Shown here piece by piece: positions 3,266 through 56,900 of a stretch of 64,000 bases of DNA. The translations under genes and the position numbers were made by a program. The stretch is from Dictyostelium discoideum (Eukaryota). Where the stretch lies: positions 6,112,001-6,176,000 of the forward strand of contig CM000152.2 of NCBI GenBank assembly GCA_000004695.1, given 5' to 3'. Position 1 is the first letter of the stretch. Each line of letters begins with the position of its first letter. The notes below the pieces were generated by a model. The model saw only the letters and a list, made by a program, of their open reading frames with translations, did not search any database and had not been told where the DNA came from.

Positions 3266-4405
3266 ATGAAAAAAAATTTAAATAATCTAACAAAAAAAAA
3301 ATTATTTCAATTAAATAATTATAATAATAATTCAAAGAAAATTGAATTTAATAATATAAATATTCAAGAATTTAATAATGGATGTAGAAAAATTATAATA
3401 AATAGAGATGAAAATTCAAATTCTATAAATTCAGAAATTTCAACAAATTTTTTATTAAATAAATTAAATGAATATAAAGAAGATAAAGAAAGTAAATTTA
3501 TAATTCTATGTGGTGATAATAATTTACCAAATTCAAATTCATTATTAAATCAAAATTCTAATAAACCAATTATATCATTTGTAAATGAAATTACTATGGG
3601 TTTAACTTTACATTGTAGTCATAGAATTGTTGGTGATAATGCAATTTGGTCAATTCCAAAAGTAAGCTATTATTATTATTATTATAATTTTAATATTTTA
3701 AAAATTAATTTTAAAATTTTACAAAAAAAAAAAAAAAAAAAAAAAAAAGACTAACGAATTATTTTTTTCAGATTTGGGAACAAGTCATTTCCTTTCAAGA
3801 CTCGGTTCAGTTGGATTATATTTAGGAATAGTTAGAAAAAATATTAGGACAACAGATTTAATTAAAACTAATATTGCAAATAATTATATCCCAAATGAAT
3901 TATTTGATAAAGCAATGTGTGAATTGTGTTTTAGTCCAATGAATAAATGATGATGAAATTGATTTTACAATAAAGAAGTATAAAAAAGAGTTAATTATTG
4001 ATAGAGAGTCGTCGCATTTGGTGAAATACAGGGATATAATCGATAGATGTTTTAATAGAAATTTTAAATCAGTTCAAGAGATCATTAATCATTTAAAGAA
4101 TGAAATACTTTTTGATGATATTCCACACGAAAAACAATGGGCCATAAATACATTGTCAATATTGGAAAACTCATGTCAATCTTCAGTTTCTGTTTCATTT
4201 GAAAATATTCAACGTTCATTATATTTAAATATAAATGAAATTTTTGAAAATGAAAATAGAATTATTTCGAAAACAATTGGAAAAAAATGACTTTCCTAAA
4301 TTGTTAACAATCCATAAATCTCAAAAACCAATTTTCTCTCCCTCTTCAATTAATGAAATAAGTCAAACTATAAAGTTTCCTTTTTTTTTTTTTGTATTTC
4401 TTTAA
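3266..4405 (+). pseudogene. 3-hydroxyisobutyryl-CoA hydrolase (HIBCH, crotonase-fold)-like gene, degenerate with probable frameshifts
   Basis: Exon 1 is 3266-3661 (donor aaa|gtaagc). Exon 2 starts at 3750 after the AG at 3748-3749. It encodes 'TNELFFSDLGTSHFLSRLGSVGLYLGIVRKNIRTTDL', which matches the HIBCH segment '[36 protein letters not shown]'. Homology then continues in frame +1 from ~3946 ('DDEIDFTIKKYKKE...SFENIQRSLYLNINEIFENENRI') and in frame +2 from ~4250 ('NDFPKLLTIHKSQKPIFSP' ~ 'DFHEGVRAVLIDKDQSPKW'). No intron can join these segments. The Gly-rich oxyanion loop (GGG->LTL) and the catalytic Glu of 'MPE' (->IPK) are lost. Confidence 0.5.
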
Positions 4406-4712
4406 AAGATAAAAAAAAAAAAAAAAAAAATAAATAATCAATAATTCCAGGTTTTTTTTTTTTATTTATTTTATATTTAATATTTCCAAAAATAGAAAAA
4501 TAGAAAAAATAAAAAATAATTTTATGGAAATAAAACAATTCTCAAATTTTTATTATTATTATTTTATTATTAATATTTGTACACAATATTGGAAATGATT
4601 AACTTTGAAATTTATTTTCAGGCAACTGATAAAATTTTTAAAAGAAAAAATCAATTGTTCAATGAAAATCAAAAAAAACAAAAAAAAAAAATAAAAATAA
4701 AAATAATAAATA

Positions 4713-4755
<43 letters not shown>

Positions 4756-5074
4756 GTTTAAAAAGATATTAGAAAAAGACATGCAAATAATAAATAAATT
4801 TTTTTTTTTAAAACAAAAAAAAAAAAAAAAAAAAAAAAAAAACATTTTTGTGTCATATGATCAAAATTCCTTAATATTGAAAAAAAAAACACTTTTTGTT
4901 AGATCTTTTGGCGATCGTTAATTTTTTTTAAATTCTATTTTTTTATTTTTTTTTTAACTCATCGATTGAGCCACCGTGATTACTTTGAGATATTTTTTAA
5001 TTTCACACAAAGTTTTGTTTTTTTTTTTATTTTTTATTTTTTATTTTTCATTTTTTATTATGGTTATTAATTTT

Positions 5075-5109
<35 letters not shown>

Positions 5110-5502
5110 TATTTTTTTATTGTACCCACACCATTCTATAATATATTATATATTTATTTTTAAAATTTTTCATTTTCTTGAAAAATAAAATTAAAAAAAA
5201 AAATAAAAATAATTTTTAAAAAAAAAAAAATACAGCTATAATATTTTTATAATCACTAATATATTTATAAATAGCATCTTGATCAATTTTTTTTAAATAA
5301 AATAAAAAAAATATTTTCACCTTATGTATGTGTTCTAAAAATAACTAAAAAAAAAAATAAAATAAAATAAAAAAAAATAATAGTAGAAAAAATGGTTTTT
5401 ATTTTTTTTTTTTATTTTATTTTTTTTTTTTTTTATTTATTTTTTTTTTTTTCGCACCCGAATTATTTTAAACGTTTAAAAATTTTTTTTTTATTTTATT
5501 TG

Positions 5503-5542
<40 letters not shown>

Positions 5543-5974
5543 AATTTTTAAACGTGTAATAATAAAAAAAGATTTTTCTTTTTTCTCAATAAATTAAATA
5601 ACATAAACCAATAATTTTCATATCACAAAAGGTAGTAATAATAATAATAAAAAAAAAATATACAACAAAAAATATCAAAATTATATTATTAGTAATATTA
5701 CTGTCAATAGCAATAATAATAATAATAACAACAATAGTTGTAAGAGTAATAATAAAAATAATTATAATTATAATAATGATAATAATGATAATAACAATAG
5801 CAGCACAGCAACAGCAAAGAAAAATAACAAAGAGAATTTAAATCCTCCTAACATATATCATCATCTTTATCGACTAAGGTGGGAGGGGGATTAATTTTTA
5901 ATCAAATAAATAAATCTCTACAATCCATACCCCAACCATCATAATCATAATAAAATACTCACAAAATTATTCAC

Positions 5975-6068
5975 ACACACACACACACAGCAGTAACAAA
6001 CTAACATACATACACTCACACACACAACACTCCCACACACAACACTCCCACACATTAACACACACACA
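5975..6068. repeat. CA/ACAC-rich simple repeat
   Basis: Imperfect 'cacacacacacag...cacacacaacactcccacacac' run in the promoter region upstream of the GbpD-like gene. Confidence 0.8.
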
Positions 6069-6340
6069 AAATTTAAAATATTTTTTTTTATTTTTTTCTA
6101 TTTTTTATTTTTTTTTTTTAAAAATAAAAAAAAAAAAAAAAAAAAAAAACCATAACAATATATTAACACAAAATAAAAAAAAAAAAAAAAAAAATATACA
6201 TATAATATATATAACATATAATAGAATAAAATATTTTAGAAACTATAAACTTTAATTTAACCAATCAAAACCAAAAAGGTTTACAACAATAGCAATAGCG
6301 CTAAAAAACCAAATAGTTTTATAATCAATCAATTATCAAA

Positions 6341-6485
6341 ATGACAGATTACCCATTCTATAAACCAGATGATGAAACCAATATAATATATAATATAAAT
6401 ATAAATAAAAAAGAAGGATTTAGTGCGATTAAATCTTGTTCATTAGCAAAATTAATAGAGAAATTAACATCAACAAAACAACTTC
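6341..6485 (+). CDS. gbpD: GbpD-like RasGEF, exon 1 (start codon; RasGEF N-terminal/REM domain begins)
   Basis: ATG at 6341. The exon encodes 'MTDYPFYKPDDETNIIYNINI...AKLIEKLTSTKQL'. Donor gtatgt at 6486, phase 1. Confidence 0.6.
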
Positions 6486-6595
6486 GTATGTTTCTTTAAA
6501 AAACAAAAAAAAAAAAAAAAAAAAAAAAATAGATGTATGACTAATTAATTATTTTTTATATATATACATTGGTTTTTTTTTTTAAATTATTTTAG

Positions 6596-6755
6596 ACACA
6601 TATTTTTCATCAGCTTTTTTTTTAACATATAGAGATTTTACAACCCCACTAGAGATTATTAATCTTTTAATTAGTAGATATACAGGACCACCACCTGATT
6701 CAAGTAAAGATTCTTTAAGATTATTTGAAATTGAAGTTGATATTGTTCAAGCAAA
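6596..6755 (+). CDS. gbpD: GbpD-like RasGEF, exon 2 (REM domain)
   Basis: Acceptor ttttag at 6591-6595. Encodes 'HTYFSSAFFLTYRDFTTPLEIINLLISRYTGPP', a RasGEF-N signature. Donor gtaagt at 6756, phase 2. Confidence 0.6.
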
Positions 6756-6858
6756 GTAAGTTTTTTTTTTTTTTTTTTTTATTATTAATTATTTTTAAAA
6801 ACCAATTTTAATAATATTTTTTTTTTATTTTTTTTTTATTTTTTTTTTTTAAAAATAG

Positions 6859-7105
6859 TGTTTTAAGTATATTTAGGACACTTATTGGAACATTAATACA
6901 AGTAGATTTCGATACACCAAAATTATCAAGTTCAATTATAGAATTTTTCAATTCGTTACCAGAAAGTGTAAAAAATGAACTCTTTTTAGAATTTTTTAAA
7001 GCAAAGAAAATGGCAAGACCACCCGGATCAATTCCCAAACCTGTAAATAGTAATATAATATCATCAGCCGCTTCAACAATGCGTTTTTCATATTCTGTTA
7101 GTCCA
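6859..7105 (+). CDS. gbpD: GbpD-like RasGEF, exon 3
   Basis: Acceptor aaatag at 6853-6858. Encodes 'NVLSIFRTLIGTLIQVDFDTPKL...'. Two in-phase donors are possible, gttagt at 7097 or gtttgt at 7106. The 7106 donor gives a 1312-aa total, the length I recall (unverified) for GbpD. Confidence 0.5.
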
Positions 7106-8074: not shown

Positions 8075-8109
<35 letters not shown>

Positions 8110-43211: not shown

Positions 43212-43891
43212 TTAACAAGATATTTTTGAGATCTTGTTACAATCCCAAATTGCAAAGCTGAAAACTGAGTTTAAAATACTATCTTGATTAAATAGATTAT
43301 AAAAATCACTATCTTGAAATGTTTTTGGATCGATTAATGTAAAACCAATTGGTAAATTCAGGTATTTATCTATATTATTAAAATTAAAATATATTATATT
43401 ATCAACTATTAGATCTGTAATATCTACATCATTAAACATAAAAGAAATATCTTTTTAATCTTTTAAATTATCAACACCTATAGATTATTTAATTTTTTTT
43501 AATTATTTAATTAGTTGGTAAATTATATTAAAATTTTCAATTTTTTTGATTTAACTTACTTTTTAATTGTATTGATGATAAAATTACTTGAATATTATGT
43601 GAATAAATGGAGCCTTCTCGATTTGGACTATAAAGTGAAAATGCATCTAAATGATTAAAAAAACCATCTGGTTATTTGTTGAACCATATTTAACGGCATC
43701 GTATAATATTTCAAAAACACCATTTTTAATATTACCAGGAACCAATGACTCTACATGAAATTCCAAAACATTATTATCAATAATTTATACCATATGTATC
43801 TAATATTATAAATCTAATAAAATAATAGAAATTACTTAAATATATGGTTTCATATGATTTTAAGATTGGTATAGTAGCGTCATTGACTATA
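43212..43891 (-). pseudogene. Copy D fragment of the family (part of the penultimate exon plus the start of the large exon), truncated at both ends by insertions
   Basis: The ORF at 43212-43439 'MFNDVDITDLIVDNIIYFNFNNIDKYLNLPIGFTLIDPKTFQDSDF...' aligns to F 50900-51145. 43560-43890 aligns to F 51300-51620. Homology to F stops at 43246 on the downstream side and at the TIR element (43892) on the upstream side. Confidence 0.65.
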
Positions 43892-44095
43892 TGTCCCATG
43901 CCAAAATTACCATATTAATTTCAGCAGCCATATTAATTTTGGCATGGGACTTAGGTCTGCCAAAATTACCTTATTAATTTCAGCAGCCATATTAATTTCA
44001 GCATGTACATAGCTGCCAAAATTAATATGGTAATTTTGGCATAGAAAAAAAAAAAGTCAAAGTCATTTAATTAATAATCATCTCAAATATAAACA
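43892..44095. repeat. Left terminal inverted repeat of the element (hairpin-rich; about 2.5 copies of a ~45-bp 'ccaaaattacc(a/t)tattaatttcagcagccatattaatt' unit)
   Basis: Read directly from the sequence. It pairs with 45841-46080. Confidence 0.75.
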
Positions 44096-44397
44096 AAATT
44101 TTAGTACTAAAATTAATATTATTATTATTTTTATTTTAATAATTATAATAATAAAAAAAAAAAAAAAAAATTTTCATATTATTTTATTTATATCTTTTAT
44201 TTATTTTTATCTTTTTATTTTTATTATTAATTTTATAATTTATTTTCATTTCTTTTTTTTTTAGTTGAAAAAAATTTTTTTATTATTCATTTATTTCTAA
44301 GGCTAACAAAAAAAAAAAATTAAAAATAAAAAAAAAAAATAAAATAAAAAAAAAAAAAAAAAAATTAAAATAATTTTTTTTTTTTAATTTTTTTTTT

Positions 44398-44934
44398 TTA
44401 ATTATCTACTCTTCTACTTACTCTTTTGTTACTAACAGATGAAGTTTCGTTTGAAAATCTTTTGGTGAAAAAATCAGCATCAGATTGTAATTGATTAGCT
44501 CTTTTTTTACCCGTTTTGTTTTTGTTTGATTGAGTTGTGATTCCACCATTATTGGAAGTTGTTGCAGCTTCATGTGTTGATCTAACTTCGGTGGTAGAGT
44601 GCTCGATTGCTTTTCCAACTAGGTCATCTGTTGATTTTCTTTTGGTTATTTCGATATCCCTTTGCAATTTATTTTTACTTGAGAGTTTGGTGGCCTCTAT
44701 TCTAGAAGTAGGCTCAGTATTGTAATAAGCCTTTATAATAGCAGAATGACTATCTGCTTTATAATGATTACTGATGTGCTGTTGACACTGGTTTTGATTA
44801 ATCATATGAGAGACACCATCTTCATCTTTGTTAAGCCTAACCTTCTCTATAATCTTCACTAAGTCTTTTGGGTACCAATTTTTTCTTTTTATCTTTATCA
44901 ATATAAAACACTTCTTTAATAGTTGCCGTACCAT
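44398..44934 (-). CDS. Element-internal ORF (178 aa), function unknown. It overlaps out of frame an upstream 75-aa ORF (44837-45064) across an A-rich slippery tract
   Basis: 'MVRQLLKKCFILIKIKRKNWYPKDLVKIIEKVRLNKDEDGVSHMINQNQCQQHIS...KRVSRRVDN*'. The codons are noticeably GC-richer at third positions than surrounding genes (gcc acc ctc cag cac atc gag). No DDE or other transposase motif was recognised. Confidence 0.35.
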   Translation of the reverse strand: MVRQLLKKCFILIKIKRKNWYPKDLVKIIEKVRLNKDEDGVSHMINQNQCQQHISNHYKADSHSAIIKAYYNTEPTSRIEATKLSSKNKLQRDIEITKRKSTDDLVGKAIEHSTTEVRSTHEAATTSNNGGITTQSNKNKTGKKRANQLQSDADFFTKRFSNETSSVSNKRVSRRVDN

Positions 44935-45362
44935 ATTCTACATTCTCAACAACATACTGTTTATCCAAAATGTTTTTCCAATAGCTTGTATTTTGTCCAC
45001 TCAATTTGGTATTATGAAATTTATAATCTATTTTAAATTTTACATCTTCGTCATATTTTTCCAAGAGTTTTTTTAATTTATTTTTATTATTTTTTCAATT
45101 TCTGTTGCAGAAAGTTGATTATTTAATTTATTGTCTTTACTGAAGACCATTTTTTGGAACGAAAACTTTAAAAAAATAAAAAAATAAAAAAAAAAATACT
45201 TTTTTTTTTTAATTTTTTTTTTTATATTTTTTTTTTTATATTTTTTTTTTTTAAATTTTTTTTTTTAATTTTTTTTTTTTATTTTATTTTTTTAAAGTTT
45301 CGAACAATTATATATAAAAAAAAAGTAAAAGATATCCCTTCGGTTAATTAAATAATAGTAAT

Positions 45363-45406
<44 letters not shown>

Positions 45407-45408
45407 TA

Positions 45409-45505
<97 letters not shown>

Positions 45506-45840
45506 CTTAAATATACAAAAAAAAAATAAAAAAATAAAAAAATAAAAAAAATAAAAAAAAAAAAATAGAATGAAATGAAATAAAATAAAATAAAAAAAAG
45601 AAATACAGAATTTCTTTAAAGAAACTTATTTCGAAATTGTTTAAACAATCATACAGTTTAAAATTAAATAAATTGTTTTAAACCACCACTTTTTTTGAAC
45701 ACATGAAAATAAATAAGAAATAAAAATAAAAAGATAAAAAAAGATTTTTTTTTTTTTTTTTATTTTATAATTATTCTTGTCGTCAGTATTGTTACTATAA
45801 TTAATCCCATGAGTTTTTTTTTATTATTATTTTTAATTCT

Positions 45841-46080
45841 TTTATATTTGAGATGATTATTATTAATTAAATGACTTTGAGTTTTTTTTTTTATTTTTCT
45901 ATGCCCAAAATTACCATATTAATTTCAGCAGCCATATTAATTTCAGCCTAAAATAGTTGGTCTGTGCATGCCAAAATTAATATGGCTGCTGAAATTAATA
46001 TGGTAATTCTAGCAGACATAAGTCCCATGCCAAAATTACCATATTAATTTCAGCAGCCATATTAATTTTGGCATGGGACA
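45841..46080. repeat. Right terminal inverted repeat of the element
   Basis: Reverse complement of 43892-44095 with a few substitutions. Confidence 0.75.
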
Positions 46081-46339
46081 ACTATACTCGAAGGTGTCAC
46101 TTGTGACTTTAGATAGAAACATTTGAAAATATAGTAAAAATGGATAAAAAAAAAAGAAAATAAAATAATTAAAAAAAAACCAAATAATAAAAAGTTTCAT
46201 TCAATATATATATATTTTTTTAGTATTTATTTTATTTTAATAAAATATGTTAAAAATTATAATGTTTCAATTTTTAATATATTTATTATTTTTTTTTTAT
46301 TATTTTTTATTTTATTTTTTAATATATTTTGTTGTAGGG

Positions 46340-46935
46340 AATTTTTTTTGATATTTCGCTTTCTAAACGGCAGTGAATTTTTACACTAAAATACACTATT
46401 TATACATAGTGTAAAAATTCACTAAAAATTTTTTTTTTTTTTTATAAATTAAAAACAATTTATTTAATCAAAATAATAAAAAAACTAATTTTGAACAATT
46501 ATTTGTTGTTTAAGAATTAAATAACAATTTAAATTGTTAGATTTGAGCCAATTTTTTTTATTTTTTTTATTTTTTTATTTTTTTTTTAATAATTTATAAA
46601 ATGGCATTGCAAACTTTTATTAAAATTTAATTGTGAGAAATTTTACTATTGTAATTTCACGGGAAAAAAAAACCTAGTAAAATGTTAAAATATAATTAAT
46701 TAAATTAAATTTTAATAAAAGTTTGTAATGCTAAATTTGAGAGTCATCTTACTCTCAAATTATTTAAATAATTTAATTTGAGAGTCATCTTACTCTCAAA
46801 TTATTTAAATAAATTTTTTATTTTTTTATTTTTTTTTTAATAATTTTTAAATAAATTGTTATTTAATTTTTATTAATTTATTTAAATAATTTGAGAGTCA
46901 TCTTACTCTCAAATTATTTAAAATACATACTTGTA
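46340..46935. repeat. Cluster of palindromes and hairpin repeats next to the element and the 5' exons of family copy E
   Basis: A 17-bp-stem hairpin 'agtgaatttttacacta...tagtgtaaaaattcact' lies at 46370-46420. A 25-bp inverted repeat 'gcattgcaaacttttattaaaattt' / 'aaattttaataaaagtttgtaatgc' lies at 46604-46632 / 46707-46735. Three copies of a ~38-bp unit 'aatttgagagtcatcttactctcaaattatttaaataa' lie at 46733-46771, 46772-46813 and 46886-46925. Each unit holds an 8-bp-stem hairpin (tttgagag...ctctcaaa). Confidence 0.7.
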
Positions 46936-48619: not shown

Positions 48620-51183
48620 TCAATAAGTCTTCTTTGATTTTTTGAAGATTTTATAAATAATGATTCTAATATGAATTGATTTTGAGAAGAGAATTATTCC
48701 AACAATTATAACTAAAACTATGAAAAATACAATAGAACCAACAATAATACCAGCTAGTTGACTTTTGGTTAAAGATGATCCGGATGATGAGCAAATTGAA
48801 TTTGGGGAATTAGAATTTACAGCTTGATTATCTAATAAAAGTGAAAAATCAGGATCTATAATTACAGAGGTTTCATATTGACCAACCACAATACCAATAT
48901 ATGATTGTACATTATTTTCATTTGATATTGAATTTAATTTTGAATCTAATAATTCATTTGCGATTGTTACTGTTTCACCATCAACAATACCACGTTTTAA
49001 GAATCTACCATAAATACTATTACTTGAAACTTGAAGTTTAATATAATTTGAATTATCTAATGTTGTATCACCAAATTCTTTACCTGAACAAATATCTTTT
49101 TCATTTGATTGAATTTGAGCTTCAATTATAACTTGTAAATTATTTAATTTATTTGAGAATTTATATGATGATAATTCTACTGTATATTTAATTGTTGATG
49201 GATTCATTATTAATTCTTGATTTGCAAATGTAATATTACTTTTTTTTTCAAACCATTCTAATGTTACATTAATTGTTGTTGTTATGTTATTATTTATAAT
49301 TGTTGATTGATAATTTGATATTGTTGATGAAATACTATTATAATACCATTTATCAATATAATGAATTTTAACTTGTTCACCATTGATTGAGTTAACTTCT
49401 CTAATTGCTATAATTGATATGTTACTTGTAACTTGGTAATTATTATTAACATTACTAGAATTATTATTTTTATTATCAATAATTGTAGTTGGTTTATCTT
49501 CATTTGGTTTTGGTTGTGGTATAATTATAACTTTAGAGCTACAATCTAAGCCAACATAAGGAGAAAAACAAATACAACCAACATTTTCTTTACAATAACC
49601 TTTTTCTGAACCGCCACATACTGGATTACCTAAACAAATTTGAGGTTTATTAGTTGGTGTTGGTGTTGGAGAAATGGTACTTGTTGGTGTTGGAGTTGGT
49701 GCTGAATAATTGAAATAATAAACTTTTGGGAAAATAGTAAAAGTGTTTGATAGAATAGTTGGTTGCTGAATATTGGTTAAATGTACATTGATTGAATCGT
49801 TTGTTGGTTTAATATTTTTAATTAAAATTACAGAATCACTCGGTACTGTCATTGCTGAAGAATAAGATTCACCATTACTTGATAATATCACAACTTTATT
49901 GGTTGATTTAAAACCTCTACCATATAACCAAAGATCACCACCATCATTATCTATAGCAGATGAGTCAGTAATGATTGGTTGAGTTACTGAAAACTCTTTT
50001 GTTTCTACAAACCAAGTAAAACCTGAATCTTTTAAATCACTTGCGCTATAACCTCTATATGATCCACCTCTATTAATAAATCCATAAACTGAAATTAAAA
50101 ATCCATATGGATGTGAAAATCCAATTGGTACTTCCATTGTGCATGTGTATTCAATATCTGTTCTATTCTTTGTAACAATGGTTGAAATACATTCATGAAT
50201 TCTTGAATTCATATCTGTTATATATACTATTGGATATTGATCATCTTTTAAACCGTCTAAATCCTGTGCATCAAAATCAAATACTATTAATCTATCTAAT
50301 GACCCAACATCAATAGATGATCTTGATACCCAAAATCTTTTTAACTCTGGTAGTGGTGAATCAATTTGATTACACATATTTAATGTTGAAACTTGTAATA
50401 TTGACATATCATTAAGATAATTAATAAATGGATTCGCACTTGAGTCAAGGCTAATTTGCCCATCCAATTCAATATTTGTAAGACGTTTATAATATTTATT
50501 TACATTACCAAATGTATCAATGAAAACTGCATAATAAATTTCATAATTTTGAGGTACACAATCATTTAAAATATATGGTATACTTATTATATAATTTCCT
50601 TTCCATTTATCACCACTACCAACTACCATATCACTTAATTCCAATGTATAATTATATAATGAACTATCAATCGAACCTCTAATAGTAACATATCCATCTT
50701 TGAAACCATTAATTTCATCTTCAATTGTAAATAACCATCCTAATGTTGTGTCTGGATATTTAACTATACTTGTAACTATTGGACCATAACTATCGAATTT
50801 TGTATTATCAATTCTTAATTGGTATTCATCAGATAATTGAGTATTAAGTATATAATTCTCTTTATTAAATATTAACATCCAATCTAAAACACCTGGTGAT
50901 GTATTTGCTGGTATTTTAAATTTAATATAAAATCTTGAATTTATTTCATCCCAAATTGCAAAACTGTAAACTGAGTTTAAAATACTAACTTGATTATATT
51001 CATTAATAAAATCACTATCTTGTAGTGTTCTTGGGTCAGTTAATGTAAAACCAATTGGTAAATTCTTATAATTATCTATATTATTAAAACTAAAATATAT
51101 TATATTATCAACTATTTGATCTGTAATATCAACATCATTAAACATAAAAGAAATATCTTTTATATCTTTTAAATGGTCAACAC
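48620..51183 (-). CDS. Copy F (long, most intact family member): terminal large exon (EGF-like motif, domain, TM, stop)
   Basis: Acceptor ctatag at 51184-51189. An 841-aa ORF contains 'CLGNPVCGGSEKGYCKENVGCICFSPYVGLDC', a (TP)n linker and the 'IVGSIVFFIVLVIIVGIILFSKS' TM helix with a basic tail 'KIFKKSKKTY*'. Confidence 0.7.
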
Positions 51184-51265
51184 CTATAGATTATTTAATT
51201 TTTTTTAATTATTTAATTAGTTGGTAAATTATATTAAAATTTTCAATTTTTTCAATTTAACTTAC

Positions 51266-51940
51266 TTTTTAATTGTATTGAAGGGAAAATTACTTGAATA
51301 GTATGTGATAAAATGGAGTAGTCTCGATTTGGACTATAAACTGAAGATGAGTCTAAGTGATTATAAAAACTTATTGAATTTTTTGTTGAACCATATTTAA
51401 CGGCATCGTATAATATTTCAAAAACACCATTTTTAATATCACCAGAAATCAATGAGTCTACATGAAATTCCAAAACATTATTATCAATAATAGTTTGAAA
51501 ATAATTTAAACCATATGTATCTGATATCATAAATCTAATTAAATAATTAAAATTATTTAAATATATGGTTTCATATGATTTTAAGATTGGTTTAGTTGTG
51601 TCATTGACAAAACTTGAAGGTGTCACTCGCAACTCTGGGCCATTTCCAGAAAGAAAGGTCATATGCAAGTAAAAATAATTTTTATTTGAAAAACCACGAG
51701 TTGGTAAAGACATTTTTATTTTGTAGTTTAAATTGTTTCCACTTGAAAATCCAAATGGAAATACTTGATATTTATTATCACCAAATATACCATCCCCATA
51801 GGAATACTTTAAGTATTGAGAATCATACTTGAATCCAATGTCACTATAAGACAATTCAAATGAATATAATGACATTGAACTAGTACTATTATCAACAGTT
51901 GTATTTATTATTGAAGATATTAAACCTTGATCAATTTGGC
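51266..51940 (-). CDS. Copy F, penultimate exon
   Basis: Acceptor gaaaag|gc at 51941-51942. Encodes '...NSTSSMSLYSFELSYSDIGFKYDSQ...VIFPSIQLK'. Donor gtaagt at 51265, phase 1, joins in frame to 51183. Confidence 0.6.
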
Positions 51941-53918: not shown

Positions 53919-56900
53919 TCAATAAGACTTTTTTGATTTTTTGAAGATTTTATAAATAATGATTCTAATACGCACTGATTTTGAGAAGAGAATTATTCCA
54001 ACAATTATAACTAAAACAATGAAAAATACAATAGAACCGACAATAATACCAGCTAGTTGACTTTTGGTTAAAGATGATTCGGATGATGAGCAAATTGAAT
54101 TTGGAGAATTAGAATTTACAGCTTGATTATCTAATAAAAGTGAAAAATCAGGATCTATAGTTACAGAGGTTTCATATTGACCAACCACAATACCAATATA
54201 TGATTGTACATTATTTTCATTTGATATTGAATTTAATTTTGAATCTAATAATTCATTGGTGACTGCCACTGTTTTACCATCAACAATACCACGTTTTAAG
54301 AATCTACCATAAATACTATTACTTGAAACTTGAAGTTTAATATAATTTGAATTATCTAATGTTGTATCACCAAATTCTTTACCTGAACAAATATCATTTG
54401 TCAATATAATGAATTTTAACTTGTTCACCATTGATTGAATTTACTTCTCTAATTGCTATAATTGATATATTACTTTTAATTTGATAATTATTAACATTAC
54501 TAGAATTACTATTGCTATTATCAATAGCTGTAGTTGGTTTATCTTCATTTGGTTTTGGTTGTGGTATAGTAATAACTTTAGAGCTACAATCTAAGCCAAC
54601 ATAAGGAGAATAACAAATACAACCAACATTTTCTTTACAATAACCTTGTTTTGAACCACTACATACTGGATTACCTAAACAAATTTGAGGTTTATTAGTT
54701 GGTGTTGGTGTTTAAGTTGGAGTTGAAGTTTGAGTTTGAGTGGGTGTTGGTGTTGGAGTTGGAGTTGGTACCGAGTAATTAAAATAATAAACTTTTGGGA
54801 AAATAGTAAAAGTATTTGATAGAATAGTTGGTTGCAGTGTGAAAATCCAATTGGTACTTCCATTGTGCATGTGTATTCAATATCTGTTCTATTCTTTGTA
54901 ACAATGGTTGATATACATTCATGAATTCTTGAATTCATATCTGTTATATAAACTATTGGATATTGGTCATCTTTTAAACCGTCTAAATCATGTGCATCAA
55001 AATCAAACGTTATTAATCTATCTAATGACCCAACATCAATAGATGATCTTGATACCCAAAATCTTTTTAACTCTGGTAGTGGTGAATCAATTTGATTACA
55101 CATATTTAATGTTGAAACTTGTAATATTGACATATCATTAAGATAATTAATAAATGGATTCGCACTTGAGTCCTTGTAATTTGGTGGATTTAAATCAAAA
55201 TTTGTTTGACGTTTATAATATTTATTTCTATTACCAAATGAATCAATGAGAACTGCATAATAAATTTCGTAATTTTGAAATACAAAATCGTTTAAAATAT
55301 ATGGTATACTTATTATATAATCTCCTTTCCATTTATCACCGCTACCAACTACCATATCACTTAATTCCAATGTATAATTATATAATGAACTATCTACTGA
55401 ACCTCTAATAGTAACATATCCATCTTTGAAACCATTAATTTCATCTTCAATTGTAAATAACCATCCTAGTGTTGTTGTCAAGCTATGATCTTGATATTTA
55501 ACTATAATTGTAACTATTGGACCATAACTATCGAATTTTGTATTATCAATTCTTAATTGGTATTCATCAGGTAATTGAGTATTAAGAAAATGATTCTCTT
55601 TATTAAATACCAACATCCAATCTAAAACACCTGGTGATGTATTTGCTGGTATTTTAAATTTAATATAAAATCTTGAATTGATTTCATCCCAAATTGCAAA
55701 GCTGTAAACTGAATTTAAAGTATTAAATACTTCAAAGTTAATTCCATTATAGAAGTCACTATCTTGTAATGTTCTTGGATCGATTAATGTAAAACGAATT
55801 GGTAAATTCTTATAATTATCTATATTATTAAAACTAAAATACATTATATTATCAACTATTTGATCTGTAATATCAACATCATTAAACATAAAAGAAATAT
55901 CTTTTACATCTTTTAAATAATTAACATCTACATATTATTATTTATTAAGAATAAAGTAATAATAAATTATAGTTAATAGTTTTATTCATAAATATCGTCA
56001 TTTTTTTTTTTTTTTTTTTTTTACTTACTTTGTTCTATAGTTGGTAAATTAATTCTTAAATTTGGAGTTTCAATAGAGAAAGGTTGATTTTGGTTAAATA
56101 ACGATGACTTATCTAAATGATTATAAAAATAATATGAATTACTTGTTGAACCATATTTAATGACATCATAAAATATTTCGAAAACACCATTTTTAATATC
56201 ACCAAAAACCAATGACTCTACATAAAATTTAATTATTTTATTATCAATATTGACTTGAATAAAATTCAAACCATATGTATCTGATATTGTAAATCTAATT
56301 AAATAATTAAAATTATTTAAATAAATAGTATCAAATTCATTTAAAGTTGGTATGAAATTATTATTATTATTATTATTGATTAAATTTGAATGTGAAACTT
56401 GTAATGCCAAACCATTACTACCACCATAATCTGTCATTTGCAAAATAAAATATTGTTGACTTGAAAAACCACGATTTGGAACAGACATTTTCATAGTGTA
56501 GTTTAAATTATTTCCACTTGAAAATCCAAATGGAAATACTTTGTATTCATTCTCAGATTCTCTATTACCTCCTCCTCCTCCACTAAAATAGGTATACCAT
56601 TGAGAATCATATGTGAAATTAAAATCACTATACATTAATTCTAATGTATAAAATGGCATTGAACTATTACTATAATCAACACTTGTATACTTTATTAACT
56701 GTTTTAAAGAATAAGAATTTAAAACTTTTTATAACATTGGTTAGACCGATAATGATAAAAATAATGATAATATTAAAAAATACATACTTGTATAGTTTGT
56801 TGGAATTTGAATAGTTTGTAATGTTGAATCATCTTTTTGTTTATAAAGGGTATAATATTGTAAATAACTATATAAAACTGAAAGGTAATCAATGTAAGTG

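Follow-up and report, generated by a model that had tools for sequence, protein, structure and literature searches.

The locus considered here raises the question of what kind of DNA interrupts a member of a local gene family in Dictyostelium discoideum, and why the open reading frames (ORFs) that it carries lack a recognizable transposase motif. The locus lies in a 64-kb stretch of the D. discoideum genome (assembly GCA_000004695.1, contig CM000152.2, positions 6,112,001 to 6,176,000 of the forward strand; G+C content approximately 20%), which is referred to throughout as the window and from which all coordinates given without a locus name are taken. An original prediction made from the sequence alone had described a 2.2-kb terminal inverted repeat (TIR) element with two overlapping ORFs, either non-autonomous or novel. 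The analysis reported here indicates that this 2,189-bp insertion very probably belongs to thug-S, a non-autonomous D. discoideum DNA transposon that has already been catalogued. Comparison with a complete relative further demonstrates that thug-S arose by internal deletion from a 3.0-kb element encoding a 591-amino acid (aa) rve DD35E transposase and has retained both complex termini.

A discrete insertion with a 6-bp target-site duplication

The element begins with TGTCCCATGCC and ends with GGCATGGGACA, its tips being TG...CA. When the left flank (to 43891) was fused to the sequence from 46087 onward, the resulting empty site aligned without gaps across the junction to a paralog near 51.5–51.7 kb (GACTATACTCGAAGG compared with GACAAAACTTGAAGG in the paralog), and six host bases have therefore been exactly duplicated. 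The inverted termini and the presence of ACTATA at both junctions bear out the prediction of a discrete TIR transposon insertion, and the empty-site alignment likewise upholds the claims that ACTATA is a true 6-bp duplication and that host sequence resumes immediately after the right-hand duplicate. No second copy of the element was found in the 64-kb window.

Identification of the element as thug-S

The thug class of D. discoideum DNA transposons, thug-S included, was reportedly catalogued by Glockner et al. in 2001. The 178-aa product of the larger ORF is exactly that of DDB_G0282703 (XP_640214.1) from D. discoideum AX4, which falls in a 90%-identity cluster with DDB_G0271172, DDB_G0279895/DDB_G0282907, DDB_G0271194, DDB_G0271154 and DDB_G0270824. 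One of these cluster mates, DDB_G0271154_TE, is given the product name 'thugS element' in a 2025 transcriptome table (PMC12405889), a label derived from dictyBase, and the DDB_G0271154 sequence contains the same deletion junction as the window ORF (...EATKLS/SKNKLQRD...). A second, DDB_G0270824, has been described as thugS-homologous (PMC3386910); its first ~165 residues correspond to the thug-S ORF and the remainder to a Tdd-4 integrase. A hairpin in the right terminus matches the Rfam precursor family mir-7131 on both strands (98.9 bits, the gathering score being 74; E = 8e-23), and a mir-7131-type hairpin is likewise a feature of the thug-S terminus. The small RNAs miRNA_can_D3-5p and -3p, listed in Table 2 of PMC4894637, each match the terminal modules with one mismatch, and the text of the same paper places a multi-copy miRNA, written 'miRNA-like_D3', inside thug-S; the two names appear to refer to one and the same miRNA. 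It is because of the ORF cluster labels, the mir-7131 match and the D3 small RNAs that the element is assigned to thug-S. This repeat is multi-copy, with eight DDB_G identifiers in AX4 distributed over two protein clusters, and its total size is consistent with the approximately 0.1% of the genome attributed to the thug class (PMC5633606). The sole difference found between thug-S and the window copy is a longer (AAT)n tract in the latter. No thug elements are listed in the supplement of PMC6161686.

Several points weigh against this assignment. The published thug-S small RNAs are one base off in every copy examined, and the six published small-RNA loci may represent a slightly different subset of copies. 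In addition, the thug-S name rests on gene-product labels and a miRNA family and not on direct alignment to a consensus, and a DDE-containing member of the thug family was not encountered among the annotated proteins of AX4.

A new, uncatalogued transposon family would be in keeping with the absence of a Pfam domain from the ORF of the window copy and with the annotation of all related proteins as 'hypothetical' or 'uncharacterized' in NCBI and UniProt. However, the ORF family already carries the dictyBase-derived label 'thugS element', the terminal hairpin is a member of a family curated in Rfam, and closely related small RNAs have been reported from thug-S (PMC4894637), leaving a new family extremely improbable. 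The original prediction had itself named a match to an already catalogued repeat as the end of any claim to novelty, and thug-S is such a repeat.

Origin of thug-S by internal deletion from a 3.0-kb element

A complete 3,006-bp element is present at positions 3981–6986 of locus L007, which derives from another D. discoideum assembly. It resembles the window copy in its termini and in the length of its target-site duplication, is 98.2% identical to it in the parts common to both, and contains one uninterrupted 591-aa ORF without an intron. Two longer proteins of the family contain the Pfam domains rve and rve_3, and for the ORFs of L007 and of a long thug copy at locus L003 the rve match has E = 2.9e-16, with rve_3 also matched in L007. 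The L007 transposase core, as read from the sequence, has the arrangement D...D-35-E and matches retroviral integrase structures as well as the IS481, IS3 and IS21 transposase models. A full length of ~3.8 kb, near that of Tdd-4/5, was considered and rejected, the excess in L003 being due to a nested and unrelated 761-bp repeat and the true length being 3,006 bp. The L007 element is possibly what the literature calls thug-T.

Whereas the rve DD35E transposase of the L007 element is intact, 1,014 bp of it are missing from the window copy, which also bears two small frameshifting deletions. Its ORF remnant consists of the N-terminal ~160 codons joined in frame to the C-terminal ~94 codons, and no DDE motif is present because the 1,014-bp deletion, itself in frame, has removed the whole rve DD35E catalytic core; the description of the element as non-autonomous and without a DDE motif is thus accounted for by comparison with the intact ORF. 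No Pfam domain was detected in the joined ORF of the window copy, which gave only a sub-threshold match to DUF424, and protein searches with this ORF returned Dictyostelium proteins only. The two small deletions break the remnant into the 178-aa ORF (44398–44934) and an overlapping 75-aa ORF (44837–45064), both present on the minus strand as originally claimed. The G+C content at third codon positions of the 178-aa ORF is 0.27, compared with 0.10–0.18 for the exons of the neighbouring paralog, in agreement with the GC-richer codon endings that had been noted.

The 75-aa and 178-aa ORFs overlap because the 1-bp and 8-bp deletions (9 bp in total) cause the reading frame to be left and then re-entered. 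What had been taken for an A-rich slippery stretch is therefore, relative to the intact 591-aa ORF, the 8-bp deletion paired with the upstream 1-bp deletion, and not a site of programmed frameshifting. The 1,014-bp, 8-bp and 1-bp deletions are all common to the four thug-S copies compared with L007 (the window copy and those at loci L002, L005 and L006). From these alignments the two-lesion overlap is best read as decay inherited from one master copy rather than as programmed frameshifting.

The truncated ORF could alternatively have been kept for a function, for example as an N-terminal DNA-binding inhibitor of transposition, or with its two parts joined by programmed frameshifting. In other families truncated transposases are known inhibitors, as exemplified by KP of the P element. 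In thug-S the reading frame is preserved across the large deletion, all copies seen have an open 178-aa ORF with only 1–3 amino acid changes, and thugS transcripts have been detected and are altered in a mutant (PMC12405889). However, the 1-bp and 8-bp deletions sever the first ~90 codons and have been inherited by every copy, the pattern of shared lesions resembles descent from one damaged master copy, and the copies are too young (99.2–99.8% identical) for an open ORF to indicate selection. No slippery heptamer or stimulatory structure was noticed, although neither was specifically looked for. Retention for a function is accordingly regarded as very unlikely.

Structure of the termini

The inverted repeats extend over ~202 bp at the left end and ~239 bp at the right, with insertions and deletions between them, and each end is composed of three hairpin modules, as expected from the prediction of ~200-bp inverted repeats built from hairpin-forming subunits. 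The outermost units had been described as perfect ~60-bp palindromes; they are instead near-palindromes of ~59 nt, in which perfect 18-bp arms (TGTCCCATGCCAAAATTA / TAATTTTGGCATGGGACA) surround an asymmetric 23-nt centre. One terminal unit is present in equal orientation at both ends (58/58 identical), with the right-hand unit at 46022–46080 identical to 43893–43950 in direct orientation. The outermost inverted repeat is, strictly, 18 bp, and next to it lie modules whose orientation is reversed from one end to the other. All eight GCCAAAATTA motifs in the 64-kb window fall within the element termini. The long hairpin matching mir-7131 arises from the two outermost modules of the right terminus, which are oppositely oriented, and the region 45960–46080 folds with a minimum free energy of -73.1 kcal/mol (z = -14.8). 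The coordinates of these and other features are collected in Table 1.

Table 1. Features of the thug-S insertion and of the interrupted host sequence in the window
Feature	Position	Strand	Basis or comment
Host sequence interrupted by the element	43242..43891, resumes 46087-46101	-	Paralog alignment
Left target-site duplication, ACTATA	43886..43891	.	Paralog with a single 6-nt stretch here
thug-S element, 2,189 bp, 5'-TG...CA-3'	43892..46080	-	ORF on minus strand
Left complex terminal inverted repeat	43892..44093	.	Arm alignment, repeat families D6/D7, GCCAAAATTA motif positions
Left modules	43892-43950, 43951-44013, shortened 44014-44043		Followed by an A-run and a GTCAAAGTCATTTAAT...CATCTCAAATATAAA block
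Transposase ORF remnant	44398..45150	-	Aligned to intact 591-aa ORF of L007
1,014-bp in-frame deletion junction, ...EATKLS/SKNKLQRD...	44679..44682	-	Alignment to L007
8-bp deletion (CAAAAATT in intact ORF)	44864..44877	-	Alignment; makes the 75-aa/178-aa overlap
1-bp deletion, A7 to A6 on coding strand, near ORF start	45090..45095	-	Alignment
(AAT)n microsatellite, expanded, within element	45360..45492	.	Sequence; copy alignment
Right complex terminal inverted repeat, three modules	45842..46080	.	Repeat and arm alignment
Long hairpin, Rfam mir-7131 precursor family match	45977..46065	.	RF03716
Right target-site duplication, ACTATA	46081..46086	.	Sequence and paralog comparison

Copies, age and mobility

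Perfect 6-bp duplications of differing sequence flank six of six complete insertions, namely ACTATA at the window copy, ATTAAC, GTTGCA and TATAAC at the thug-S copies of L002, L005 and L006, GGTGTG at the full-length L007 element and TATGGA at a member of a sister family in L004. The recurrence of the same duplication length, proposed originally as a check on the element, was thus observed at every other insertion examined. Together with the termini, the occupation of several sites, the lack of a catalytic domain and the existence of an autonomous relative, these duplications provide the features by which a non-autonomous TIR DNA transposon is recognized. The four thug-S copies are 99.2–99.8% identical to one another (99.2–99.4% for the window copy against the other three) and 98.2–98.7% identical to the autonomous element L007. 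Because the thug-S copies are so similar we infer recent mobilization in trans, and their identity also agrees with the earlier description of the insertion as fairly recent.

In a second D. discoideum assembly (GCA_054883475.1, CM142509.1) the orthologous site harbours the same insertion (locus L008, 2038–4038), flanked by an identical duplication. This copy is 2,001 bp long compared with 2,189 bp in the window and has a shorter (AAT)n tract, indicating that the microsatellite within the element varies between strains. The tract makes up most of the extra length of the window copy relative to other copies, which measure 1,955–2,001 bp.

Relationship to other integrase-type transposons

To place the thug transposase, group profiles were built from a published core alignment (PMC10045372) and the thug core was scored against six groups. 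The highest score was obtained with IS481 (70.8 bits), followed by Ginger2 (63.2 bits), Ginger1 (50.9 bits), IS3 (49.8 bits), Polinton (32.5 bits) and IS3EU/GingerRoot (26.9 bits). The lead of the IS481 profile over that of Ginger2 amounts to only 7 bits, and the match to the NCBIfam IS481 model (E = 1.3e-23), at 83.9 bits, is far under the family cut-off of 224 bits. On these core scores, which are about equal for the first two groups, the thug transposase would be classed as IS481-like or Ginger2-like, and not as IS3EU. In an exhaustive HMMER search close relatives of the thug transposase were found in Dictyostelium only; the next matches are ~30% identical and, to judge from their lengths, may be retroelement polyproteins and short transposases.

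A 6-bp duplication had been considered unusual in the original prediction, but it is normal in several rve groups, including IS481, IS3EU/GingerRoot and Polinton (PMC10045372, PMC6839031). This duplication length had prompted consideration of an IS3EU/GingerRoot placement, and the absence of an HHCC finger and the presence of inverted termini (100–150 bp in that group) are further traits common to IS3EU/GingerRoot and thug. However, the termini of IS3EU/GingerRoot elements mostly read TA...TA rather than the TG...CA of thug, and the placement was rejected as the core profile is the weakest of the six.

The prokaryotic IS481 group has TG...CA ends, mostly 6-bp duplications and no HHCC finger, as in thug, and gives the best profile match to the thug catalytic core. 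In contrast, its N-terminal region is unrelated to that of thug, the host of thug is eukaryotic, and the thug termini are far longer and modular. The Ginger2/TDD group, which includes Tdd-4 and Tdd-5, has an integrase-type core, TG...CA ends and long inverted termini in common with thug, and the best single pairwise match to the thug core is Ginger2-1_NV. Its members differ in possessing an HHCC finger and duplications of 4–5 bp; immediately upstream of the thug core a single Cys is present and no H..H...C..C pattern can be read from the sequence.

The resemblance to Ginger2/TDD raises the alternative that the element descends by deletion from Tdd-4 or Tdd-5, the known integrase-type transposons of D. 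discoideum, a reading with which the TG...CA ends, the long inverted termini, the rve-type transposase of the full-length relative and the fusion of the thug-S ORF to a Tdd-4 integrase in gene model DDB_G0270824 are all in keeping. However, the thug ORF is single and uninterrupted, whereas Tdd-4 is reported (Wells 1999) to have six introns. The thug transposase also has no HHCC zinc finger, and DDB_G0270824 (P0160) is a chimeric gene model over two adjacent transposons, the Tdd-4 part of which is internally deleted. Alignment of the thug transposase to the cores of TDD4 and TDD5 (taken from Additional file 1 of PMC2836005) gave no more than 27% identity across 113 residues, tblastn with TDD4 and TDD5 gave no match in the element, and the 6-bp duplication differs from the 5 bp reported for Tdd-4/5 (PMC2836005). 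Descent from Tdd-4 or Tdd-5 is refuted by the low core identity and the negative tblastn result, and almost no credence can be given to it. A Tdd-type end, TGTAGGGAATTTT, at 46333–46345 was also discounted, since it equals the first 13 nt of the Tdd-4 end in L003 with no further match and would be expected by chance.

According to a 2017 review, the transposases encoded by Dictyostelium DNA transposons show no resemblance to known ones (PMC5633606). It is conceivable, though doubtful, that thug constitutes an Amoebozoan lineage of its own among rve DD35E cut-and-paste transposons, situated between prokaryotic IS481 and eukaryotic Ginger2. Such a lineage may be characterized by the lack of an HHCC finger, 6-bp duplications, TG...CA ends and modular hairpin termini. 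It may be that no formal description has yet been given of the superfamily placement or of the intact 3.0-kb copy with its 591-aa transposase.

Proposed mechanism and significance

The organization of thug-S suggests a route by which the window copy could have arisen. Full-length transposase, provided in trans, would bind the repeated GCCAAAATTA motifs and excise the element at its TG...CA tips, and reinsertion would proceed via cuts staggered by 6 bp. The window copy would in this way have entered a degenerate duplicate belonging to the local gene family, and its two small ORFs would represent decay products of a transposase gene and not a gene expressed by frameshifting. The outer two modules of the right terminus, facing each other, give rise to the long mir-7131-family hairpin, closely related small RNAs having been reported from thug-S.

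As a discovery the element carries little weight, being a catalogued repeat in a well-studied genome with a terminal hairpin already in Rfam. The analysis does, however, make the anatomy of thug-S explicit as a deletion derivative of a 3.0-kb rve-type element with a 6-bp duplication at six sites, and it allows several AX4 'hypothetical protein' genes, among them DDB_G0282703, DDB_G0271172, DDB_G0279895/DDB_G0282907, DDB_G0271194 and DDB_G0290953, to be read as transposon remnants.

Related elements and nested repeats

Members of a thug sister family, with ~79% nucleotide identity in the ORF and ends TGTCCCATGCCAATTTTCTC, are present at L004 (5026–8822) and at L001 (from 5408). At 3,797 bp the L004 copy is complete; it has the duplication TATGGA and encodes an rve transposase (gene models P0002 and P0007); this family might be the element called thug-T. 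A 138-bp mini-element at L005 1292–1429 has thug-like ends (TGTTCCATGCC...GGCATGGGGCA), is ~78% identical to the sister-family termini, shows no clear target-site duplication and may be a derivative resembling a miniature inverted-repeat transposable element.

The 761-bp repeat nested in the long thug copy (L003 7149–7908) is abundant, with copies ~99% identical, and is rich in TTTAAAGGTAATTT-type short repeats. Further copies were located at L003 1322–2081, 9018–9777 and 10829–11586, at L007 9675–10434 and 1953–2711, and at L006 5824–6537. Stretches of this repeat that looked tRNA-like by eye were not called as tRNA by ARAGORN. In L003 a long thug copy is truncated at 8094 by a Tdd-4 copy.

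Host locus

The element had been placed within an exon of a family gene. This is correct insofar as the interrupted sequence shows homology to exon 1 of the family gene, but the host copy is itself a truncated and degenerate duplicate. With the element removed, the region 43242–46101 matches 50948–51627 of the intact paralog (48620–51875, minus strand) at 88%, one upstream piece also matches, and the bulk of the 841-codon second exon is absent. Three copies of this gene family lie in the window, at 43242–43891 plus 46087–46101, at 48620–51875 and at 55850–56353, and the protein encoded by the family is large, secreted or membrane-bound, and has an epidermal growth factor-like Cys-rich stretch.

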